From positions 5,235 through 69,234 of the forward strand of contig CALVKJ010000001.1 of assembly GCA_944332675.1 (NCBI GenBank): DNA of 64,000 nucleotides. Reading direction: 5' to 3'. Numbering within the stretch: position 1 is the stretch's first letter; each line of letters begins with the position of its first letter. Both the position numbers and the translations under genes were made by a program. Below, piece by piece: positions 38,976 through 62,937 of this stretch. Under the pieces are notes generated by a model. The model searched no databases and had not been told where the DNA came from. It was given only the letters and a program-made list of their open reading frames with translations. The stretch comes from an uncultured Bacilli bacterium (GTDB lineage Bacteria; Bacillota_I; Bacilli_A; RF39; UBA660).

Positions 38976-39515
38976 ACAAGTTAAAGGTGTGGTAAAATCA
39001 CTTACATTGCCTAAGTAATTTATCATTATATCATCTAAAGTATTATTATTTGCAGCATCATTTTCTTCATTTATAGTATGAACTTCGATATCAATTATAA
39101 GAGTAAATATTTTATCATCGGCACTATAATAAACATTAGCTCTATTTACATAAACACTACTTTCAGCTATTTTCCATCTTCTGACATTTTCACCAGTGGA
39201 ATCAATATATGAAAATAAGGTGCTTGTAGTACTTAGATAAGAACTCGTATTATCAGAAAAGTTAAATGTAATGTTTAAAGTTTCAGAATCGCTATTATCA
39301 ACTATACTAGTTAAAACTTTATTATTTAAGTCATTGCCGATCATTCTTAAGATTTCAGCCCTATTTATTTGATTATCACGCGCATAAGTAGTGTTAGTTT
39401 CTAGATTATTTAAATCGATTAATAGTCTAATCATAAATATTAAAACTACCGATATTAAAGCTATACTAATTATTACTTCGGCTAAAGATGTTCCTTTTTT
39501 ATTTAGCATAATCAT
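38952..39515 (-). CDS. type IV pilin-like (pseudopilin) protein
   Basis: Class III signal: KKG|TSLAE with Glu at +5, followed by a hydrophobic helix VIISIALISVVLIFMI. Confidence 0.65.
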   Translation of the reverse strand: MIMLNKKGTSLAEVIISIALISVVLIFMIRLLIDLNNLETNTTYARDNQINRAEILRMIGNDLNNKVLTSIVDNSDSETLNITFNFSDNTSSYLSTTSTLFSYIDSTGENVRRWKIAESSVYVNRANVYYSADDKIFTLIIDIEVHTINEENDAANNNTLDDIMINYLGNVSDFTTPLTCLGTGCNQ

Positions 39516-40408
39516 TCCTCTATTCTATATGGTGAAGCTTGACTACCTTCACCACTTGCCAAATGTACGGTACTATTTAAATAAAATACTGGTCTAATTT
39601 GAAATGTATTTTCTACGGTACTGGAAGACAATGTTCCATTATTATTAATATAAAATGCAGTATTATGAGTAGAATTATCTCGCGAAATTGTCCAGTAACT
39701 TGTGCCATTATTTAACCAATTATCAGTCCCAGTAGCAGTTGATCCATAATTATCTTGAATTGTTCCATAACCATAATCGGATATATATAATAAAGCAATT
39801 TTGTTATTTACCCAAATATTTTTATTTTGATTATTTCCTAATTCATTTTCATAAATATTTTTTAATGTATCTGTTGCTAATGAATTAGTAATACCATTAG
39901 TATAAAAATTAGTTGTGGCAATTAAAGATGCATAAGTACTTAAGGTATTTAAATAGTTAGTATTTAAATAATTATAAATCGTCGTATTTATAAAATAGTT
40001 GGTTTCATCGGTATCAAAAGCTAAAGTAGCTACACTACTATTCGATATAAGTTTAACTTTGCCATCAATTACCCCGATTATGCGATATAAATTATTACTA
40101 GGACAAGGAGTAACAATAGTACCAAAACATACATAATTATTTGGATTTGCTCCAGTATAACGGTAAGAATTATCCCCTGCTCCATTTACTAAATCGGCAT
40201 TGTGGTGAACAAGGCCAAGTTCTTCAGCGTGATTAATTAAATAGCGGGCAAAAGTTGTATCTGATATATTCTCTTTAATTTCAGCTTTCATACTATTTAA
40301 AAGAAGACGATTGCTAACCAAATTATTGACAATAAAAAGCATAAGTAACAAAAATACAACAAAAAATGAGTAAACAACAGAAATTGATATAAATCCTTTT
40401 TTATTCAT
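39512..40408 (-). CDS. type IV pilin-like protein with a C-terminal domain shared with the 508-aa secreted protein
   Basis: Probable start MNKKGFISISVV at 40408 with SD AGGTGA; KKG|F prepilin-like N-terminus lacking Glu+5; C-terminal YRYTGANPNNYVCFG...CP..NLYRIIGVIDGKVKLI...WTISR...RPVFYL...SPY domain. Confidence 0.55.
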   Translation of the reverse strand: MNKKGFISISVVYSFFVVFLLLMLFIVNNLVSNRLLLNSMKAEIKENISDTTFARYLINHAEELGLVHHNADLVNGAGDNSYRYTGANPNNYVCFGTIVTPCPSNNLYRIIGVIDGKVKLISNSSVATLAFDTDETNYFINTTIYNYLNTNYLNTLSTYASLIATTNFYTNGITNSLATDTLKNIYENELGNNQNKNIWVNNKIALLYISDYGYGTIQDNYGSTATGTDNWLNNGTSYWTISRDNSTHNTAFYINNNGTLSSSTVENTFQIRPVFYLNSTVHLASGEGSQASPYRIEE

Positions 40409-40416
40409 ACAATCAC

Positions 40417-41013
40417 CTAAATTCCTAAAGATACATAATAAAGGTTGCATCCTTCATCAGTACCAGGAACACACCTACTAAGTCTGCCATCAACCGTATA
40501 TTCAGAATATTCTACAATTAAATAATAATTATAAGTAGTATCATTTAAAGTTTGAATATAACTATTAATAGCATAATTTAAATTAGAAGTTGATGCTTCA
40601 CATTTGGTATCATCTTTCAAATTAGTACAATTACTAAGCATATCAGAGTCCATTATTAACATTTGATTAACGCTAAAATTAGTAAAAATATTTTCCATAG
40701 TAGCTTTCATATTATTAGCGATTTGCTCACTATTAAACATCCCATCAAATTCTGGGCCGATAGTGATTATATAACTATTTTCAAAAGCATAACTTTTTAT
40801 ATTTTCTATATTAGTATTATTTTCTAGAAACTCCCTTATATAATTTGTCCGATATATATAAGCAGTATCATCATAATAAAGTCGTGTTTCTTCCCTATTG
40901 ATGATACTACTATATGTTCCATACAAATAAAGTAGTGAGGTTGACAATACAACAACAGTTATAATAGTTTCGATAATAGCAAATCCCTGTTTATTTTTTT
41001 TCATTCTCATCAT
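40417..41013 (-). CDS. type IV pilin / pseudopilin (ComGC-like)
   Basis: Canonical prepilin motif KQG|FAIIE (Gly-1, Phe+1, Glu+5) followed by a hydrophobic helix; 198 aa. Confidence 0.75.
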   Translation of the reverse strand: MMRMKKNKQGFAIIETIITVVVLSTSLLYLYGTYSSIINREETRLYYDDTAYIYRTNYIREFLENNTNIENIKSYAFENSYIITIGPEFDGMFNSEQIANNMKATMENIFTNFSVNQMLIMDSDMLSNCTNLKDDTKCEASTSNLNYAINSYIQTLNDTTYNYYLIVEYSEYTVDGRLSRCVPGTDEGCNLYYVSLGI

Positions 41014-53631: not shown

Positions 53632-55158
53632 TCACACTACCAAAGTATATGGATCAGTACTTGTTCCTGTACCTTCAGAAAATTCTACACTAGATTCTAG
53701 ATAGAAGGACGGCCTGACCGCATACACAAGGTACACGTTGCCGAGGTAGTTCACGTAGCCTGTGTCGCTCACATTGAACGCAAGGAACGTATTGTCCGAA
53801 TAGCGGGAAATAGTCCATTCACCTGCTCCAATATGCATCCAGTTATTATTCCTATTTGTATCATTATCATAATCACTTAAATCTGTATTCCAGTTTTCTG
53901 GGCTTGCTGCATATCCATAATCACTTACATACATTAATCCTATTTTTGCTTCGTATGTTGTATTTGCTTTATTTGCTCCTACTTCATAATTATATGCTGT
54001 TTGCACTGGACTATTTAAATACATTGAACTTCCTCCTCCTACTTGCCATTCTGTTGTCGCTATCTTGTCGCTCCATTCACTTCCTATTGTTGTTAGATAT
54101 GTTCCGTTTAATACGCTTGTATTTAATGTACTACTACTCCATACATTACTTTGATTACTGCTTGATCCGCTCCAATAGTAATATGGGATACTGCTTAAGC
54201 TTCCTTTATAGTATGTTGAACTTGGAGTTCTACTACCTGCCGGGGCTGTTCCTAATACACTTTCTCCGGCATAATCGCTTTTTATCAATTTTACTTGTCC
54301 ATCAAACACTCCTATTATTCTATATAGGTTATCTGCTGGGCATGTTTCTTCGTCTGAACCAAAACATATGTAATTATTTGGATTTGCTCCACTATATCTG
54401 TAGCTATTATCTCCTGCTTCTAATGTTCCATATGTTCCTGTTCCATCATGGTAATATATTCCATTTTCTCCATCTGTTGTATATAAACTAGCTATATATT
54501 CTGCTGCATTTCCTAAATCTGTACTCATTGATTCTTCTTGAATTATCAAATTTGCACTAAATGTCTTTCCTGTATTTGCATTTTGATCCGCATCTAAGTT
54601 TGCAAATATTACTTCTACTGTCCATTCTTGAGTTACTGTTCCAGTTGATACTATTTCATAATTATTTGCTATTGTAATTACTCCTGTTGATGTTGTTATA
54701 TCAAATCCTGTTACTCCACCACTTGTCTTTCTTGTTAATCCTGTTATACTTGTTACTTCTGCTCCTGTTGGATCTGTTACTTTTAATAACAATTCTGCTT
54801 GATTATCACTTGTTGTATATTCAAAATTATTACTTTCTATATTTAAAAATATATAATAATTTCTCGTAGCATTATTTGTTGCATTATTTGCTGTTAATAT
54901 GGCTCTTGCAAAAGTTTCACCACTTTTATTTCCAGCACCTTGACCAAAGTCTTCTTGGTTTGCTGTTAAACTTATTGCACTTCCTGTTTGAAATGATAAG
55001 TTATCTGTTGTTGCAGTACCAGCATTAACACTAATATTTCCTGTAGTTCCTCCTTGAGCAGCAAAATATGCATATGTTGCTCCAACTACTGCTGTTATTA
55101 ATGTTACTACGCCAATTATAGATAACACTAATGCTTTCTTCTGATTTTGTTTTTCCAT
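53632..55158 (-). CDS. large secreted T/G/S/N-rich protein with a SipW-cognate-like signal peptide
   Basis: N-terminus KKALVLSIIGVVTLITAVVGATYAYFAAQ resembles the TasA/camelysin-type signal (GGTxAxF); C-terminal ~150 aa are homologous to the pilin-like gene at 39512-40408; SD AAGGAAGG. Confidence 0.6.
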   Translation of the reverse strand: MEKQNQKKALVLSIIGVVTLITAVVGATYAYFAAQGGTTGNISVNAGTATTDNLSFQTGSAISLTANQEDFGQGAGNKSGETFARAILTANNATNNATRNYYIFLNIESNNFEYTTSDNQAELLLKVTDPTGAEVTSITGLTRKTSGGVTGFDITTSTGVITIANNYEIVSTGTVTQEWTVEVIFANLDADQNANTGKTFSANLIIQEESMSTDLGNAAEYIASLYTTDGENGIYYHDGTGTYGTLEAGDNSYRYSGANPNNYICFGSDEETCPADNLYRIIGVFDGQVKLIKSDYAGESVLGTAPAGSRTPSSTYYKGSLSSIPYYYWSGSSSNQSNVWSSSTLNTSVLNGTYLTTIGSEWSDKIATTEWQVGGGSSMYLNSPVQTAYNYEVGANKANTTYEAKIGLMYVSDYGYAASPENWNTDLSDYDNDTNRNNNWMHIGAGEWTISRYSDNTFLAFNVSDTGYVNYLGNVYLVYAVRPSFYLESSVEFSEGTGTSTDPYTLVV

Positions 55159-55196
55159 AAAATTTCAATCCTTCCTTTTTGGTATACTCTAGTGCA

Positions 55197-55218
55197 AATT
55201 GACGTAAACCAAACCGTC
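55197..55218. promoter_or_regulatory. palindrome TTGACG-N10-CGTCAA in the 5' UTR of the 508-aa gene (operator-like)
   Basis: Perfect 6-bp inverted arms separated by 10 nt, ~40-60 nt upstream of the start codon. Confidence 0.4.
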
Positions 55219-55249
55219 AATTCTACTAAATATACCCTCTATATTTCTC

Positions 55250-55287
55250 ATACTACCAAAAAAAAAAAAAAAAAAAAAAAAAATCAA
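55250..55287 (-). promoter_or_regulatory. putative promoter whose -35/-10 spacer is a homopolymeric tract
   Basis: On the minus strand TTGATT (rc of 55282-55287), then T26 plus gg, then an extended -10 TGgTAGTAT (rc of 55250-55258); current spacer ~26 nt. Confidence 0.45.
55258..55283. repeat. uninterrupted poly(A)26 / poly(T)26 homopolymeric tract
   Basis: 26 consecutive A on the plus strand, upstream of the minus-strand surface-protein gene. Confidence 0.95.
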
Positions 55288-55480
55288 CCTTACGGTTGAA
55301 GATTTCAGATAATCAAATGCAACTTTACACATCTTTACTTTATTGCATTTTCAATTAACTATCTAAAAATATTTTTCTATTCTAACTCTTACAAACTTAA
55401 GAAATATTTAAATAAATGTCAATGTATATATTTTACTTAAAGTTTATTTTATGTAAAGCCTAAGAATTTAATTGCTCGGG

Positions 55481-55942
55481 TTAATCCTTTGATATGATAT
55501 GTTTAAAATTTTCATCCACAATTATATCTTTAATTAATGATGGTCTTATATTAAGATTTAGATAATCATCTTTTTTATACCACTGCATATGCATTAATGG
55601 ATTTTCTAAATTAATGAAATTGCCTTTTGCAAAATATTCTTCTTTAGCATCAATTAAATAGATAAATAAATATTCGTGAAACTTTGTGCCATCTTTAAAG
55701 GTAAAGAAATTTTCAATGATTCTTACAAGTTTAGCATCAGTAATATCCCAGTTGAGTTCTTCTTTTAACTCACGTAACACTGCAGTTTTGGAGTCTTCAC
55801 CATAATTTATTCTTCCTCCAGGGATACTATAATAATCTTTATCTTCCCTCTTACTAATTAAATAATAATCATTATATCTAATTATGGCAGCACTTCTTAC
55901 ATTGAACTTTTCATTATCACTTACTTTAAAACTTAAATCCAT
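55481..55942 (-). CDS. NUDIX hydrolase
   Basis: Nudix box GGRINYGEDSKTAVLRELKEELN. Confidence 0.8.
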   Translation of the reverse strand: MDLSFKVSDNEKFNVRSAAIIRYNDYYLISKREDKDYYSIPGGRINYGEDSKTAVLRELKEELNWDITDAKLVRIIENFFTFKDGTKFHEYLFIYLIDAKEEYFAKGNFINLENPLMHMQWYKKDDYLNLNIRPSLIKDIIVDENFKHIISKD

Positions 55943-58742: not shown

Positions 58743-60290
58743 TTAAATTCCTTTTTTTCTAATTAAGGTATCATATGTATCTAAAACTTTAGGATCTTCA
58801 ATTAGAAAACGATATTTTACATAAATATGTTTAAAGTTATATAATAAATTTTCTAAATCTTTATTATTAGCATCATATTCTGCTATAAGGTTAGATATGT
58901 CTTTATCTAATTCTTCTAAAACTTTATCACAATCTTTTCTTATCTTTAATCTGCGCATAATTTCTGATGCATCTATTAAAGAAAGATCAGTAACTCCCGC
59001 AAATAAGAAAGACATTTTGACAATTGCCCAAGGCACAAATAGCATTAATAAAACTATCAATAAACTATATCTATACGCCAAATTATCAGAATCTACTATA
59101 TAATTATTAGAGTTTTGAATTAAACGAATGACTTCAGTTATTTGTTGCTCATAAGTTTCTTTCGCTGATAAATTAGTGCTATTTTCATTGGTAATATTAA
59201 CATTATTTAAATCAGCTAAATTAAGAGCTACATATTCTTCTAACTTTTCATAATCGATATCACTTACATCTGCAGATACAACTGTTCTTGTGTAATTGTT
59301 AGTCATAAATTCTTCCCAAGGGGTGTAAGAAACTACCAATATTTTTTCCCCAGCAGGAATTTTTTCTTGATAATCAGCAGTAGTTCTAGTTAGACCATCA
59401 ACCGTAGAATAAGTTTCTTTAGTAGTATGATAAAGTTTAGTAGAAGAAAGTGCTTTTACTCCTTTATTAGCGCCATAAATAAGGCCACTTAATAACACTA
59501 CTGTTGCAGTTGCACTAGCAATTAATCTAGTTACTTTAGCATCATTTCGTCTTTTATTAGTAGCTTTTTTTTCGGATTGCTTATTATCAATAGCTGCTGC
59601 TAATTCTTTTTTCTTAGCTATTTTTGCACAAATTTTTTCGTATTGTTCATGTAGTTTCTTAGAAACATCATTAATAAAATTATCATCACTTTCTATAACC
59701 CCCACAAGTGAAGATGGCTTATTTTTTAGATCTTGTAAATTAATATTAATCGCACTTCTAAAAATTTCACTTAAGCCAGATTCTTCAATAAATTCTAGTA
59801 ATACACTATTACCGTGGAATAACAATTCTTTTTGGATAATTATTACATAAAATGGTAATATCTTTTTTAATATGATTTCACAGTTAGGATCAGCAAAATC
59901 ACAACAAGCTAATAAATCGATAATACTTCTTATGGCATTATTAGCATATACTGCAATATTTTCTTCAAGTATAGATCCTTCTTCAGCTGCTTCTTTATAT
60001 ATTTGGACATTTTCATATAATTTTAAAAGCTTATTATATTTATTTAACTCAAGACTTAATGCTTGAAGACTTTTAAAACCTCTAGAATGTGCCGAATCTA
60101 AATAAGCAGCGGTGAAAGCATTTTTGGGTTTATTTTGAATTTCTTCTACCTCTTTAGTACAAGATGCAACAATTTCATTTAAAGTTTGTTGATATTTAGA
60201 TACATCAAGACCTAAGTCTTCTAAATTACTTATTAATCTTTCTAATTCTATCTTTTTACTTTTATAGTTAAACGCAAAACCATTAGTCAT
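58743..60290 (-). CDS. hypothetical coiled-coil/membrane protein (515 aa)
   Basis: Long ORF, two predicted TM segments in the C-terminal half, no known motifs. Confidence 0.5.
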   Translation of the reverse strand: MTNGFAFNYKSKKIELERLISNLEDLGLDVSKYQQTLNEIVASCTKEVEEIQNKPKNAFTAAYLDSAHSRGFKSLQALSLELNKYNKLLKLYENVQIYKEAAEEGSILEENIAVYANNAIRSIIDLLACCDFADPNCEIILKKILPFYVIIIQKELLFHGNSVLLEFIEESGLSEIFRSAININLQDLKNKPSSLVGVIESDDNFINDVSKKLHEQYEKICAKIAKKKELAAAIDNKQSEKKATNKRRNDAKVTRLIASATATVVLLSGLIYGANKGVKALSSTKLYHTTKETYSTVDGLTRTTADYQEKIPAGEKILVVSYTPWEEFMTNNYTRTVVSADVSDIDYEKLEEYVALNLADLNNVNITNENSTNLSAKETYEQQITEVIRLIQNSNNYIVDSDNLAYRYSLLIVLLMLFVPWAIVKMSFLFAGVTDLSLIDASEIMRRLKIRKDCDKVLEELDKDISNLIAEYDANNKDLENLLYNFKHIYVKYRFLIEDPKVLDTYDTLIRKKGI

Positions 60291-60383: not shown

Positions 60384-60389
60384 TAAAAG

Positions 60390-60652
60390 CACTTGAAAGA
60401 GGTCGCGGCCTTAAATAGTAATAATTTAATTAAACAGATTATTGTTAAATTATGAAAGGTAATGCCGCCGAAGTTAAGAAGATATATCTGTTAGTCTTCT
60501 TTTCTGGGGAATTATAAAATATATAATTCACTGTCGTATCAGAAGATACGGAGCGCTTGTCAAGATGATGGGAATGTATATTACCATGGTTTTTGCGCTT
60601 CTCAAGTTGCAAGCCATGGTTTTTTTGTGGTGGCAAATAAGGAGAAGAGATT
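60390..60652 (+). ncRNA. ~260-nt structured 5' leader ending in an intrinsic terminator (candidate riboswitch/attenuator, class unknown)
   Basis: Hairpins at 60535-60550 (cgtatc-agaa-gatacg) and a palindrome agatatatct; terminator with ccatgg arms 60584-60619 plus T7 (60620-60626) ~25 nt before the RBS AAGGAG of the downstream gene. Confidence 0.4.
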
Positions 60653-61612
60653 ATGAAAAGAACAAGATTTTTTGAAAGATGTAGCCATAGCTACCAATAT
60701 TTATCGGATATGTGTAAATCGGTAACAGAAGAATACACAGATATTAAATTTAGTGTTGTTCAATGTGATCCTAATTTTAGGGAGCCAATTAAAATTATCA
60801 ATTTAGTTAAAGATATAAGTGATTTTTACAATGAAAATTGGTTGGGTAATGCTGATTACATACATATACCTGATGCTAGAAAAGTTTTAGATAATTATTT
60901 AAAGTATCCAATTATTATGGCATATCAACAATATCCAGATGGGTCGATCGATATTTTGGGTATTGCCACTTTAAAATACTATCAAAATACGGATGATTTT
61001 GTAAATCCTTACTACCCTATTCCTAATAAAAGATTTTTTGAAGTAACGGGTATATTAACTAAACAAAATAGCCTTGTTAAAAATATTGGCAAGAGAATAT
61101 ACGAAATATTAATTGAAGCTTTGGAAAAATATCAAGAAGTTCTTCCTGATTTTGATGTTATATTTGTAGCTGATTGTAGAAATTATATGAGCATAAATGG
61201 AGCACGTGGTGGTGCTAAGTACTTAAGAGAAGAACGAGGTAAAAACGCATATGGCAAAATTGTAGGATTTTATACTGTTAGGGAAAATGGGGTGTTAACT
61301 GAGGCTCCAACATTTGTAGCTAAATTTGATTTTAATAGCTCCCCTCTTACAAATACTATCGAATTTTCTTATCAAGAAGATGCCGATTTATTTGAGAGTA
61401 TGCTACAAATAATCACCAGTAAATTAGCTAGTTATGATATTGCTCCAGAAGCCATTAATATGGATGAATGCGGAGAAGTAGCTTTTTATAAATTAGGTGA
61501 TGATCGTATAAATTTAGATGATATAACTATACTACCTAATGGAACAGAAAAAGGAAATGATCGTATTCCTTGGCCAATTACACGAAAAAGAGTTAGGGGT
61601 GGTATTAAATGA
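60653..61612 (+). CDS. hypothetical protein with a GNAT-like acyl-CoA binding motif
   Basis: VKNIGKRIYEILIEAL resembles GNAT motif A (V/I-x4-R-G-x-G); the stop overlaps the start of the dipeptidase gene. Confidence 0.45.
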   Translation: MKRTRFFERCSHSYQYLSDMCKSVTEEYTDIKFSVVQCDPNFREPIKIINLVKDISDFYNENWLGNADYIHIPDARKVLDNYLKYPIIMAYQQYPDGSIDILGIATLKYYQNTDDFVNPYYPIPNKRFFEVTGILTKQNSLVKNIGKRIYEILIEALEKYQEVLPDFDVIFVADCRNYMSINGARGGAKYLREERGKNAYGKIVGFYTVRENGVLTEAPTFVAKFDFNSSPLTNTIEFSYQEDADLFESMLQIITSKLASYDIAPEAINMDECGEVAFYKLGDDRINLDDITILPNGTEKGNDRIPWPITRKRVRGGIK

Positions 61613-62937
61613 ATAAAACAATAAATTTTTTTAAAGAAATAGCTAAAATTCCGCGAGAATCTGGAAATGAAGAAAAAATTACTGAATATTTATGTGAATT
61701 TGCAAGAAAGCGTAATTTAGAATATTATAAAGATAACTATAACAATGTTTTAATTAAGAAAAAAACTAGTGATGCTAATCCTTTAATATTACAAGCGCAT
61801 ACTGATATGGTATGTGTTAGCAATAAAGATTTTGATTTTACTAAAGAGTCAATTGAAGTTATAGAAAAAGATGGATATTTGCAAGCAAATGGAACTACTC
61901 TTGGAGCCGATAATGGGATTGGGGTTGCTTTCATATTAACTATATTAGATTGTAATATACCTTGTAATATTGAAGCAGTATTTACAAGTAGCGAAGAAAC
62001 AACTATGCGCGGAGCTGAAAACTTTGATACCACTAAACTAACAGGTAAATACTTACTAAATTTGGATGGGTTTGATGAAAATGTTATCATTAGAGCATCA
62101 GCTGCCTACTACGATTTAGAAATGGATACAAATTTTAAAAAGGAAAAAAGTAGTTTTGGAAATACTTATAAAATCACTTTATCAGGACTTCCCGGAGGAC
62201 ATTCTGGTTATGATTTAGATAAAAATCGGGGTAATGCCATAATAATGTTAGCAGATTTTTTAAAACAATTTAAGCTTGAATTAGTAAGTATTAATGGTGG
62301 AACTAAAAATAATGTCTTCCCTACTAAAGCAGAAGTTTTAATAAATACTAATGAAGATATAAATCAAATATCGTTTATAGATGAAGATAAAAATAGATAT
62401 CCTAATTTAAAAATAGAGGTAATTAAACAAGAATATATAAAAGATGTTTTACCTAATACTAGTGAATTACTAGATTTTATTAGCAATTTTCCAAGTAAAG
62501 CACTCTATTATAATAAAAATAATGAACCCACTACATCACTAAATTTAGGTAATATAAATAATAACCATTTAGAAATTGGAATGCGTAGTACAAATAAAGA
62601 TGAAGCAAATAAAGTATTAGAAATACTAAGCAATTATGGTAATAAATATAATTTTTCTTTAAAACAAGTTGGTTATCAACCGGGATTTTATTCTAGTGAG
62701 GATTCTCCTCTTATAAAGCTACTTAAAGAAACGGATCCATACAAAACTAAAGCAGAAGCTAAATCATTACACATAACTGTTGAAGCGGGATTTTTTCAAG
62801 AGCGTATTCCGGAGCTAGAAATTGCCATAATTTCTCCCGATATAAAAGATGCTCACTCTATCAATGAACGAGTAAGCATCCAATCAATTTCTAAAACTTA
62901 TAAATGGCTAGAAGAATTTATCAAGGCTTTTAAGTAA
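61609..62937 (+). CDS. M20 family aminoacyl-histidine (Xaa-His) dipeptidase, PepD-like
   Basis: N-terminus FKEIAKIPRESGNEEKITEYL, metal ligands LQAHTDMV...GADNGIG, and the PepD-like architecture (442 aa). Confidence 0.8.
   Translation: MNKTINFFKEIAKIPRESGNEEKITEYLCEFARKRNLEYYKDNYNNVLIKKKTSDANPLILQAHTDMVCVSNKDFDFTKESIEVIEKDGYLQANGTTLGADNGIGVAFILTILDCNIPCNIEAVFTSSEETTMRGAENFDTTKLTGKYLLNLDGFDENVIIRASAAYYDLEMDTNFKKEKSSFGNTYKITLSGLPGGHSGYDLDKNRGNAIIMLADFLKQFKLELVSINGGTKNNVFPTKAEVLINTNEDINQISFIDEDKNRYPNLKIEVIKQEYIKDVLPNTSELLDFISNFPSKALYYNKNNEPTTSLNLGNINNNHLEIGMRSTNKDEANKVLEILSNYGNKYNFSLKQVGYQPGFYSSEDSPLIKLLKETDPYKTKAEAKSLHITVEAGFFQERIPELEIAIISPDIKDAHSINERVSIQSISKTYKWLEEFIKAFK

Follow-up and report, generated by a model that had tools for sequence, protein, structure and literature searches.

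An uninterrupted run of 26 T lies upstream of the gene for a 508-aa protein on the minus strand of the 64 kb stretch of DNA analysed here (the window). This tract is a hypermutable repeat, and its lengths in short-read assemblies are unreliable. Judging from sequence comparison, we put at about one in two the probability that it is the expanded, slippage-prone T-tail of a small module, a hairpin followed by a T run, that would act as an intrinsic-terminator-like insulator. A length-dependent effect on expression of the 508-aa gene is possible. The features of the region, all on the minus strand, are as follows.

55481-55942: NUDIX hydrolase gene, co-oriented with the 508-aa gene and last gene of the operon 58703-55481.
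55459-55480: decayed terminator hairpin directly after the NUDIX stop, CCCGAGC..TCTTAGG (comparison with L094).
55430-55457: promoter-like P0, TTTACA-N16-TAAAAT (10/12), upstream of the hairpin and T26 (promoter scan).
55394-55422: distal promoter-like P1, TTGACA-N17-TAAGTT, with a degraded -10 (sequence; below the promoter-scan threshold).
55303-55368: long hairpin predicted by folding in any RNA from P0 or P1 that ends at the hairpin and T26.
55284-55299: hairpin TCAACC-GTAA-GGTTGA, 6 bp with 3 G-C pairs and a 4-nt GUAA loop, abutting the T run (terminator scan, RNA fold).
55282-55287: -35-like TTGATT, made of the hairpin 3' arm TTGA and the first two T of the tract (sequence).
55258-55283: T26 homopolymer (A26 on the plus strand), a hypervariable run that forms the T-tail of the hairpin module (sequence; alleles across contigs).
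55225-55257: conserved block GGTAGTATGAGAAATATAGAGGGTATATTTAGT just 3' of the tract, with the extended -10-like TGg-TAGTAT (55255-55250), candidate promoter P2.
55181-55236: long imperfect leader hairpin just before the ribosome-binding site, with the core palindrome TTGACG-N10-CGTCAA (55199-55220).
55170-55176: ribosome-binding site AGGAAGG, 11 nt before the ATG at 55158 (sequence).
53632-55158: 508-aa gene, encoding an N-terminal transmembrane/signal helix (..GATYAYF..) followed by beta-rich domains.

Inspection of the sequence confirmed the A26 run at 55258-55283 that the original prediction had reported about 100 nt upstream of the 508-aa gene; the measured distance from the tract to the ATG is 99 nt, and on the minus strand the context reads GGTTGA-T26-GGTAGTAT. 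The statement that the window holds no other homopolymer of such length was also correct, the second-longest being 8 nt (16 T8 and 3 A8 runs). With the base frequencies of the window (A 0.345, T 0.375), the expected number of runs of at least 26 in a window is about 6e-7. Across 306 kb of related loci we found three homopolymers of at least 11 nt, two of them upstream of family genes, and a T-tail of 26-65 nt has no counterpart within about 370 kb.

In about 17 independent contigs from gut metagenomes, obtained in several studies with several assemblers, a T run stands at precisely this site. Samples with the locus include ERZ28615067/SAMEA6814444, ERZ28614662/SAMEA6814448, the BRZ_* runs, SRR5275432 and ERR4096373. 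Five of them span the tract with unique sequence on both sides, and these carry four different lengths.

T16: L002/L087.
T26, seen twice: the window and L088.
T20-A-T7-AA-T4 (about T34, interrupted): L065/L089.
T65: L001.

At least 10 contigs break at or in the tract (L003-L008, L066-L071, L092 and L093), with runs of at least 21, 24, 31 and 34 T at contig ends. Because the lengths differ between assemblies and contigs break there, we consider the locus a hypermutable repeat. Length heterogeneity is present among assemblies of the same strain-level locus, as differences between samples, and the exact length is uncertain in any short-read assembly, the T26 of the window included. Elsewhere in the family an orthologous pair differs in the same manner, with T6 in L077 and T63 in L057.

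The hairpin that abuts the tract had been overlooked in the original prediction. It is unchanged in all strain-level contigs and has a folding energy of -7.9 to -8.5 kcal/mol (z = -3.0), which falls in the range of the other intergenic terminators of the window. The terminator scan classed the hairpin and T run as terminator-like, one of 2 such sites in 2.8 kb against 0.8 expected. The arrangement resembles the rho-independent terminators of low-GC Firmicutes: a short stem-loop containing G-C pairs runs straight into T residues on the transcribed strand, with a co-oriented operon before it and the promoter of the next gene after it, in the manner of an insulator, and homologous copies carry normal T6-T7 tails. 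The scan found no second terminator-like site between the NUDIX stop and this hairpin, nor any other terminator from there to the 508-aa gene. In strain L094 the NUDIX-proximal hairpin is intact, with CCCGAGC..GCTTGGG followed by TTTTATTT. Unlike usual terminators, whose tails count about 5-9 T (T5-T8 at the other terminator-like sites of the window), the tail here ranges from 16 to at least 65 nt and is polymorphic between strains, and the stem is short.

The module of hairpin, T run and conserved block also occurs upstream of other paralogs, in differing genomic contexts and with tails of T6-T7. The instances compared are given below.

Window: GGTTGA-T26-GGTAGTATGAGAAATATAG.
L057: TTGAC-T63-GGTACTATGGGAAATATAGG.
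L077: TTGAC-T6-ATATA-TACTATGAGAAATATAGG.
L081-84 and L085: TTGACC-T7-G-TGGAAAATATTGGAG.

The block 3' of the tract is common to L057 and L077 (GGTACTATGGGAAATATAGGAGGTAGATAAAG) and partly shared with L081 and L085 (TGGAAAATATTGGAG). In L057, L077 and L081 the stem has a 9-bp consensus, AAAGUYRAG...CUUGACYUU, in which TTGA(C) is the conserved 3' arm (CUUGAC); the local stem of the window module differs from this consensus. In the short-tail versions a gap of only 10-11 nt separates TTGAC from the -10-like hexamer (L077 with T6, L081-85 with T7), which suggests that the pair did not evolve as a promoter. L081 and L085 lack any TAnTAT hexamer, and L057, L077 and L081 each have a canonical promoter downstream of the module. 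The module hairpin of L077 is stable (-9.6 kcal/mol, z = -3.7). In L052 (CAG:460), too, a strong hairpin (-14.6 kcal/mol) with a T19 tail precedes a family member. A JGI metagenome scan for T6 followed by GGTANTATGNGAAATATAG gave a single match (L064), inside a coding region and dismissed as chance, and the source organism is therefore absent from that collection.

If the tract is indeed an expanded terminator tail, the module would sit at the 5' edge of a cassette of promoter and leader that precedes some members of the surface-protein family in this lineage. RNA polymerase transcribing the minus strand from the NUDIX operon, or from P0 or P1, would terminate at the hairpin and U-run, which would shield the 508-aa gene from upstream transcription. 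A tail longer than about 8-9 U would contribute little more to termination, and the length polymorphism would therefore be mainly a mutational by-product, generated by replication slippage once the tract had become long enough to be unstable, at a site that puts little constraint on its length. Transcription of the 508-aa gene would start at P2, at a weak proximal site or at both, and its 5' UTR probably folds as a stable stem-loop. As a possible side effect, a tract of T16-T18 puts TTGATT at -35 distance from TAGTAT, and such alleles may be transcribed more strongly.

Several observations count against this reading. A tail of 26-65 nt far exceeds what a terminator needs and, being unique in about 370 kb, is not obviously accounted for by pure neutrality. 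The stem in the window is only 6 bp, the module hairpin of L081 is weak (-4.7 kcal/mol, z = -0.2), and the consensus stem shows two pairs altered one-sidedly via G.U wobble and no two-sided compensatory change. The hairpin and T19 of L052 lie between divergent genes, where, given the orientation of the flanking genes, they cannot terminate an upstream operon. In L085 the upstream arm is replaced, yet TTGA(C) is kept beside the T run, which also fits a -35 element. Finally, a good extended -10 follows the tract and no other convincing promoter lies downstream of the hairpin: the promoter scan of the minus strand between 55158 and 55257 found no -35/-10 pair with 16-18 nt spacing, and the best proximal site found by hand, TTTACG-N16-TATACC, has a poor -10 and sits about 50 nt beyond the tract.

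The leader hairpin that follows is very stable (-22.1 kcal/mol, z = -4.7, with 0 of 200 shuffles as stable). The only two substitutions of L008 (55224 A>T and 55195 G>A) replace a mismatched A and G that face each other by a U-A pair; three substitutions of L001 weaken the hairpin to -11.5 kcal/mol. Its core palindrome had been correctly recognized in the original prediction but placed at 55197-55218, two nucleotides away from its actual position. The palindrome is present as a single copy in the window and was rejected as a repeated element. The sequence AAGGAAGGATT at the ribosome-binding site is kept in paralogs.

The 508-aa protein is a membrane-anchored or secreted member of a very large paralogous surface-protein family of uncultured gut Bacilli. 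Searches of Pfam and NCBIfam with this protein returned zero matches. It has at least 7998 homologues, with copy numbers per MAG reaching at least 9. The source lineage has small genomes, and its relatives are the 'uncultured Bacilli' MAGs, CAG:609, CAG:460 and Ca. Onthocola. The AF2 model has a pLDDT of 74 and the fold search gave weak hits, to the TasA fibre (probability 0.96 but TM 0.17-0.32) and to the T. ramosa IgA peptidase (E = 6e-5, TM 0.28). A neighbouring 515-aa ORF (58743-60290), considered as a possible relative, is unrelated. An upstream run of at least 9 T was found at 4 of 55 genome loci, namely L040 (T9), L053 (T9), L052 (T19) and L057 (T63). Most paralogs have no tract and normal promoters with a 17-nt spacer (TTGACT-N17-TAAAAT in the close paralogs), and the close orthologues P0002, P0003, P0005 and P0006 likewise have canonical promoters and no tract.

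A tentative extension of the terminator reading is that the element serves two purposes, the hairpin blocking upstream transcription while the T-tail would act as a hypermutable spacer or tuner for the extended -10 promoter. If so, slippage would switch or grade, stochastically, single members of a surface-protein family thousands strong, and a terminator would here have been made into a contingency locus whose tracts (to about 60 nt) are far longer than in any described bacterial switch. Our literature search did not find a described case of phase variation via a terminator tail, and a search combining RF39 with phase variation gave nothing relevant.

The original prediction itself, in which TTGATT and TGgTAGTAT form a sigma-A promoter that is ON at about T16-T18 and OFF otherwise through slipped-strand mispairing, appears doubtful. 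Repeats in the promoter spacer control N. meningitidis porA and opc and, as TA repeats, H. influenzae hif. In the window TTGATT (55287-55282), the 26-nt spacer and TGg-TAGTAT (55255-55250) are all present as described, L057 and L077 share the conserved 3' flank GGTAnTATG.GAAATATAG, and the fully spanned T16 allele has a 16-nt spacer. The gene belongs to a multi-copy surface-protein family, the hairpin would exclude upstream transcription and so give a tight OFF state, and a better promoter downstream of the hairpin is absent. A precedent exists in Mycoplasma hyorhinis, where, as reported in PMC10502178 citing Citti and Wise 1995, the vlp genes have a poly(A) homopolymer in the promoter spacer. 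Both loci have an A/T homopolymer, altered in length by slippage, between -35-like and -10-like elements 5' of a gene of a variable surface-protein family in a low-GC Bacilli lineage. However, in contrast to vlp, the TTGA of the '-35' here is the conserved 3' arm of a hairpin, short alleles have a 10-11 nt spacing, and the tract is found on rare family members rather than on every gene, most paralogs having fixed spacers. Among the five spanning contigs, only that with T16 provides a spacer of 16-18 nt, the others giving 26, about 34 and 65. Three of the four spanning lengths and all the long noisy contig ends are 8 to about 50 nt off a spacing of 16-18 nt, unlike in switches of the vlp and porA type. 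For tracts of 26, about 34, 31 or more, 34 or more, 63 (L057) and 65 the departure from the ON length is 8-48 nt. The hexamer is missing from L081 and L085, the module is not the promoter of L057, L077 and L081 because each has a canonical promoter downstream, and the tract of L052 has no TTG. Moreover, an extended -10 lessens the need for a -35, so that length might not gate the promoter at all. What stands of the original prediction is an exceptional, length-variable tract 5' of a surface-protein gene; its role as a dedicated -35/-10 spacer is doubtful.

The T run, standing directly upstream of an extended -10 or upstream of the weak proximal promoter, might adjust RNA polymerase binding in a graded way, like a UP element, by DNA geometry, contacts with alpha-CTD or the exclusion of nucleoid proteins; we consider this unlikely. 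The model for such a rheostat is the T-tract of H. pylori sabA, which varies from T5 to T28 among isolates and lies just upstream of the mapped -35, with UP-like A-boxes further upstream (PMC4081817). Both are intergenic poly-T tracts 5' of an adhesin-like gene with wide-ranging lengths between samples, any effect would be graded rather than binary, and very long tracts are tolerated both in the window and at L057. The sabA tract, however, is upstream of a normal -35, whereas the tract here abuts TGgTAGTAT, a -10-like element of a predicted promoter, and a hairpin, and reaches at least 60 nt. In the scanned interval no -35 lies directly downstream of the tract, none separates it from the -10, and the nearest alternative (TTTACG) is about 50 nt away. 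A rheostat is, in these data, indistinguishable from a neutral tail.

It is more improbable that a structured RNA of about 110-140 nt is made from P0 or P1 and ends at the hairpin and U-run, the tract being merely the terminator tail of a small RNA or of a regulated leader of the 508-aa gene. P0 scores well, P1 shares homology with the canonical promoter TTGACT-N17-TAAAAT of L036, the closest paralog (22 of 29 positions identical by eye), the fold of 55392-55250 (-26.4 kcal/mol, z = -2.5) is more structured than shuffles, and L052 has a promoter-like TATAAT followed by its hairpin and T19 ahead of the gene. On the other hand, P1 has a degraded -10, no convincing antiterminator alternative was found by eye, and the segment is known only from near-identical strains and so offers no covariation. 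Rfam at gathering thresholds detected only a lysine riboswitch (60389-60566) in the whole window, and its permissive mode nothing credible in 55100-55520. A 47-aa ORF on the minus strand (55189-55332), poly-Phe through the tract, was rejected as coding, as its frame shifts with tract length and it has no ribosome-binding site. In Clostridioides difficile the surface-protein gene cwpV is expressed or not according to a terminator in its 5' leader, and it switches by site-specific inversion between inverted repeats. Here too a terminator-like stem-loop stands between an upstream promoter and a surface-protein gene of a Firmicute, but the variable element is a homopolymer and flanking inverted repeats of the cwpV kind are absent. 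An invertible switch was rejected, the interval 55100-55560 containing just four inverted repeats, which are 10-13 nt long, AT-rich, imperfect and chance-like.

That the run is an assembly or sequencing artefact absent from the genome is very improbable: short-read assemblers do mis-size long homopolymers, and several contigs have noisy poly-T ends or chimeric junctions (L003, L006, L066-L068), but the run recurs at the same position across studies and assemblers and is spanned five times. The junction in L067/L091, where T8 is followed by unrelated GC-richer sequence, matches no fetched locus and was set aside as a chimeric contig end.

In all, if the tract is only the overgrown tail of a terminator, it is still a naturally occurring homopolymer, 26 to at least 60 nt long, at which most short-read assemblies of this locus fragment. 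It would also illustrate that a hairpin arm can give rise to -35/-10 look-alikes around a T run, and would document the shuffling of the family's 5' cassettes (terminator, promoter and leader) between genomic contexts. If instead its length affects expression, this group of Bacilli, uncultured and host-associated, would have in the tract its first candidate for a contingency locus, one tied to a very large and uncharacterised surface-protein family, and existing stool metagenomes would allow it to be tested directly.

An uninterrupted A26 is present at 55258-55283 on the plus strand of the window, a segment of a low-GC bacterial chromosome (G+C 27.9%) in which, as originally predicted, no comparable homopolymer occurs: the next longest run is 8 nt, and by our own arithmetic from base frequencies ~6e-7 runs of at least 26 nt are expected per window. 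The tract lies 99 nt from the ATG (55158) of the 508-aa gene (ORF 53632-55158), in agreement with the predicted ~100 nt. Because the minus strand reads ...cTTCAACCgtaaGGTTGA-T26-GGTAGTATGAGAAATATAGAGGG..., its description as TTGATT-N26-TGgTAGTAT is literally correct. Overlooked in that description was a hairpin preceding the T run (-7.9 to -8.5 kcal/mol, z = -3.0), which together with the run was terminator-like in a terminator scan. The surrounding features are:

Ending at 55481, co-oriented with the 508-aa gene: upstream operon of abhydrolase, acyltransferase-like, DUF6320 and NUDIX genes
After the decayed NUDIX hairpin, minus strand: promoter-like site P0, TTTACA-N16-TAAAAT (10/12)
Beyond P0, minus strand: promoter-like site P1, TTGACA-N17-TAAGTT (22/29 identical, in our own alignment, to the promoter of paralog L036)
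55299-55284, minus strand: hairpin TCAACC-GTAA-GGTTGA, 16 nt, abutting the T run on its 5' side
Downstream of the 508-aa gene, convergent: PilB/GspE-like ATPase gene

The 508-aa protein had no match in Pfam or NCBIfam. It starts with a basic stretch followed by a transmembrane helix ending ..GATYAYF.., an N-terminus that we take to resemble TasA/camelysin-type signal peptides, and its AlphaFold model (pLDDT 74) has beta-rich domains; the TasA fibre and the Thomasclavelia ramosa IgA peptidase matched its fold only weakly. The family is unnamed and very large, with at least 7998 homologues at E <= 1e-3 out of 8000 candidates scored. It is multi-copy in reference genomes (single MAGs carry at least nine copies), and its hosts are gut 'uncultured Bacilli' MAGs, Clostridium sp. 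CAG:609, Firmicutes bacterium CAG:460 and Candidatus Onthocola. A second protein of the window shares the C-terminal domain of the 508-aa protein but not its N-terminal half (39521-40222, minus strand, within ORF 39512-40450; match to residues 231-506, 33% identity, tblastn E = 3e-33). Elsewhere in the window, a lysine riboswitch (60389-60566, plus strand; Rfam RF00168, 105.8 bits) lies upstream of ORFs 60653-61612 and 61609-62937.

Public assemblies were searched for the exact 508-aa, NUDIX and DUF6320 proteins. This led to the identification of ~17 independent contigs that reach the tract site and are elsewhere 99.4-100% identical to the window; five span the tract and the remainder stop at or inside it. 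The alleles seen, whose exact lengths are untrustworthy in short-read assemblies owing to k-mer collapse and homopolymer read errors, are:

T16: L002/L087
T26: the window and L088
T20-A-T7-AA-T4: L065/L089 (3x coverage)
T65: L001 (3x coverage)

Contig ends at the site carry partial runs (at least T7, T16, T17, T21 or T24), long noisy poly-T (T31-G-T42..., T34-A-T8-G-T20...) or chimeric junk. At the end of L067/L091, the T run (T8) passes into unrelated sequence of higher GC (CATTCGACAAAAGTAGACAGC...) found in no other fetched locus; the homopolymer probably gave rise to a chimeric contig end here. Since the contigs share the site, five span it with differing lengths and the rest break there, the tract is real, defeats short-read assembly and differs in length between samples; it is not invariant across strains.

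Upstream runs of at least nine T were found at 4 of 55 genome loci (L057, T63; L052, T19; L053 and L040, T9 each), and the majority of paralogs have no tract. The closest homologues (L036, L009, L031 and the orthologues P0002, P0003, P0005 and P0006) have canonical promoters of the TTGACT-N17-TAAAAT type, which follow the terminator of the upstream gene. In L057, which comes from a different species-level MAG, the sequence is CCTTGAC-T63-GGTACTATGGGAAATATAGGAGG, with flanks clearly homologous to those of the window; the orthologue of L057 from a different sample, L077, which shares the upstream radical-SAM/SPASM gene, has TCTTGAC-T6-ATATA-TACTATGAGAAATATAGGAAG at the same place. A third and a fourth context, L081-84 and L085, contain TTGACC-T7-G-TGGAAAATATTGGAG; in L081-84 this module is downstream of a ClpB-like gene having its own terminator, and in L085 the upstream hairpin arm is replaced. 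Common to L057, L077 and L081 is a 9-bp hairpin before the T run (AAAGUYRAG...CUUGACYUU; -9.6 kcal/mol, z = -3.7 in L077, weak in L081), in which two pairs are altered on one side only and pairing is kept via G.U wobble. These three loci have a good canonical promoter 60-90 nt downstream of the module, e.g. TTGCTA-N17-TATACT, and in the short-tail state TTGAC is only 10-11 nt from the -10-like hexamer. At L052 (CAG:460) a strong hairpin, GCCCUA...UAGGGC (-14.6 kcal/mol), and T19 precede the family gene in a divergent intergenic region, with no TTG adjoining the tract. The anatomy of L057, L077, L081, L085 and L052 leads us to read 'TTGA' as the 3' arm of the hairpin and the T run as its tail, ordinarily T6-T7. 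The whole module, including the conserved block 3' of the run, appears to be a small insulator resembling a terminator, placed at the 5' edge of the promoter and leader cassette of the family; the tail appears hugely expanded in two related instances, the window and L057.

Homopolymer placement 5' of family genes looks non-random. The 306 kb of related loci contain only three runs of at least 11 nt, two of them 5' of family genes, for which we estimate a chance of ~0.01 (window left out, uniform positions); the window and L057 tracts are not independent events because they are homologous. Family member L053 (~2925-2990) has TTGTTT and six more T (T9 in all), then GGCACTTTTGA and GATAAT, with a complementary A8 before the T9; it can be read as a -35-like site and an extended -10 separated by a 17-nt spacer that takes in part of T9, a promoter-like spacing that appears functional. 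In Firmicutes bacterium CAG:460 (L052, 2851-2990) the family gene and an XRE-type HTH gene diverge, and a GTGATATTATCAC palindrome overlaps the TATAAT box upstream of the hairpin and T19, suggesting repressor control of this copy. Another repeat type stands at the start of L030 (1-110), where an 18-nt unit (CTTCTAGAAAGGTAGAGG) is repeated in tandem at least six times directly upstream of a family member. An A17 inside a paralog coding region (L014, 4215-4231), replacing roughly ..TTYEAK.. 27 nt from the contig end, may be a true run within the gene or may come from the assembly.

Upstream of the tract, the hairpin CCCGAGC...TCTTAGG after the NUDIX stop is a decayed form of the intact terminator of L094 (CCCGAGC...GCTTGGG, then TTTTATTT), and the -10 of P1 is degraded. 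Past its intact terminator L094 (2521-2630) is completely different from the window (55394-55480). That the breakpoint coincides with the terminator suggests recombination at terminators as the route by which family cassettes of terminator, promoter, leader and gene are exchanged. Downstream, the counterpart of the L077 proximal promoter is, by our own reading, rearranged to TTTACG-N16-TATACC; because its -10 is poor, the best promoter-like element 3' of the hairpin appears to be the extended -10-like TGgTAGTAT adjoining the tract. The leader has a predicted stem-loop (~55236-55181; -22.1 kcal/mol, z = -4.7) whose core is the TTGACG-N10-CGTCAA palindrome; this palindrome exists, but at 55199-55220, two bases from where it had been placed. 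Across 1823 nt, the only differences between L008 and the window are 55224 A>T and 55195 G>A; the two sites are opposed in the predicted stem, and the substitutions replace an A.G mismatch by a U-A pair. As modelled, this single covariation (compensatory-like) event supports a structured RNA/5' UTR or a symmetric DNA site/operator. In L001, the T65 allele, five of seven substitutions over 7.5 kb fall within 43 nt 3' of the tract (55215-55253; four G>A and one T>A), changing TAGTAT to TAATAT and weakening the leader stem from -22.1 to -11.5 kcal/mol. The cluster could reflect real local hypermutation/decay beside a very long tract or low-coverage (3x) errors.

We give a probability of about 0.5 to reading the tract as a terminator/insulator module's T-tail that has expanded and is prone to slippage. 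Such a module would stop transcription begun in the NUDIX operon or at P0/P1, and the length polymorphism would be mostly a mutational by-product of slippage. The promoter-spacer phase-variation switch of the original prediction seems unlikely. Its hexamers are good, the tract varies, a T16-T18 allele would provide a workable spacer and one T16 allele exists, and the 508-aa gene has no other convincing promoter; however, with TTGA read as a hairpin arm, comparative anatomy speaks against a designed -35/-10 pair, the majority of lengths are 8-48 nt off the ON length, the extended -10 reduces any need for a -35, and the family as a whole does not share the arrangement. Promoter-spacer switches of the vlp type (PMC10502178) are alike in position and gene class, but two of their features that were compared, clustering of lengths and a family-wide arrangement, are not found here. 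A cwpV-type invertible switch was ruled out by a search for inverted repeats in 55100-55560, which gave only four short (10-13 nt), AT-rich, imperfect matches. We regard as rather improbable a graded effect of tract length as at sabA, where T5-T28 are found among isolates (PMC4081817): the breadth of lengths is similar, but the position relative to the -35 differs. Somewhat less credible again is a leader or small-RNA terminator; RNA from P0 or P1 is predicted to form a long hairpin (55368-55303) followed by the hairpin and U26, and no Rfam family was found for it. Assembly artefact as the source of the run is essentially excluded by its presence at the same site in ~17 independent contigs.

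In its predicted working the tract element is closest to an intrinsic terminator, from which it differs by its abnormal tail. Comparative sequence evidence favours an intergenic hypermutable homopolymer beside a surface-protein gene, derived here from a terminator tail. For this unstudied gut lineage the tract is exceptional in length and does vary, but the evidence favours a mundane origin.
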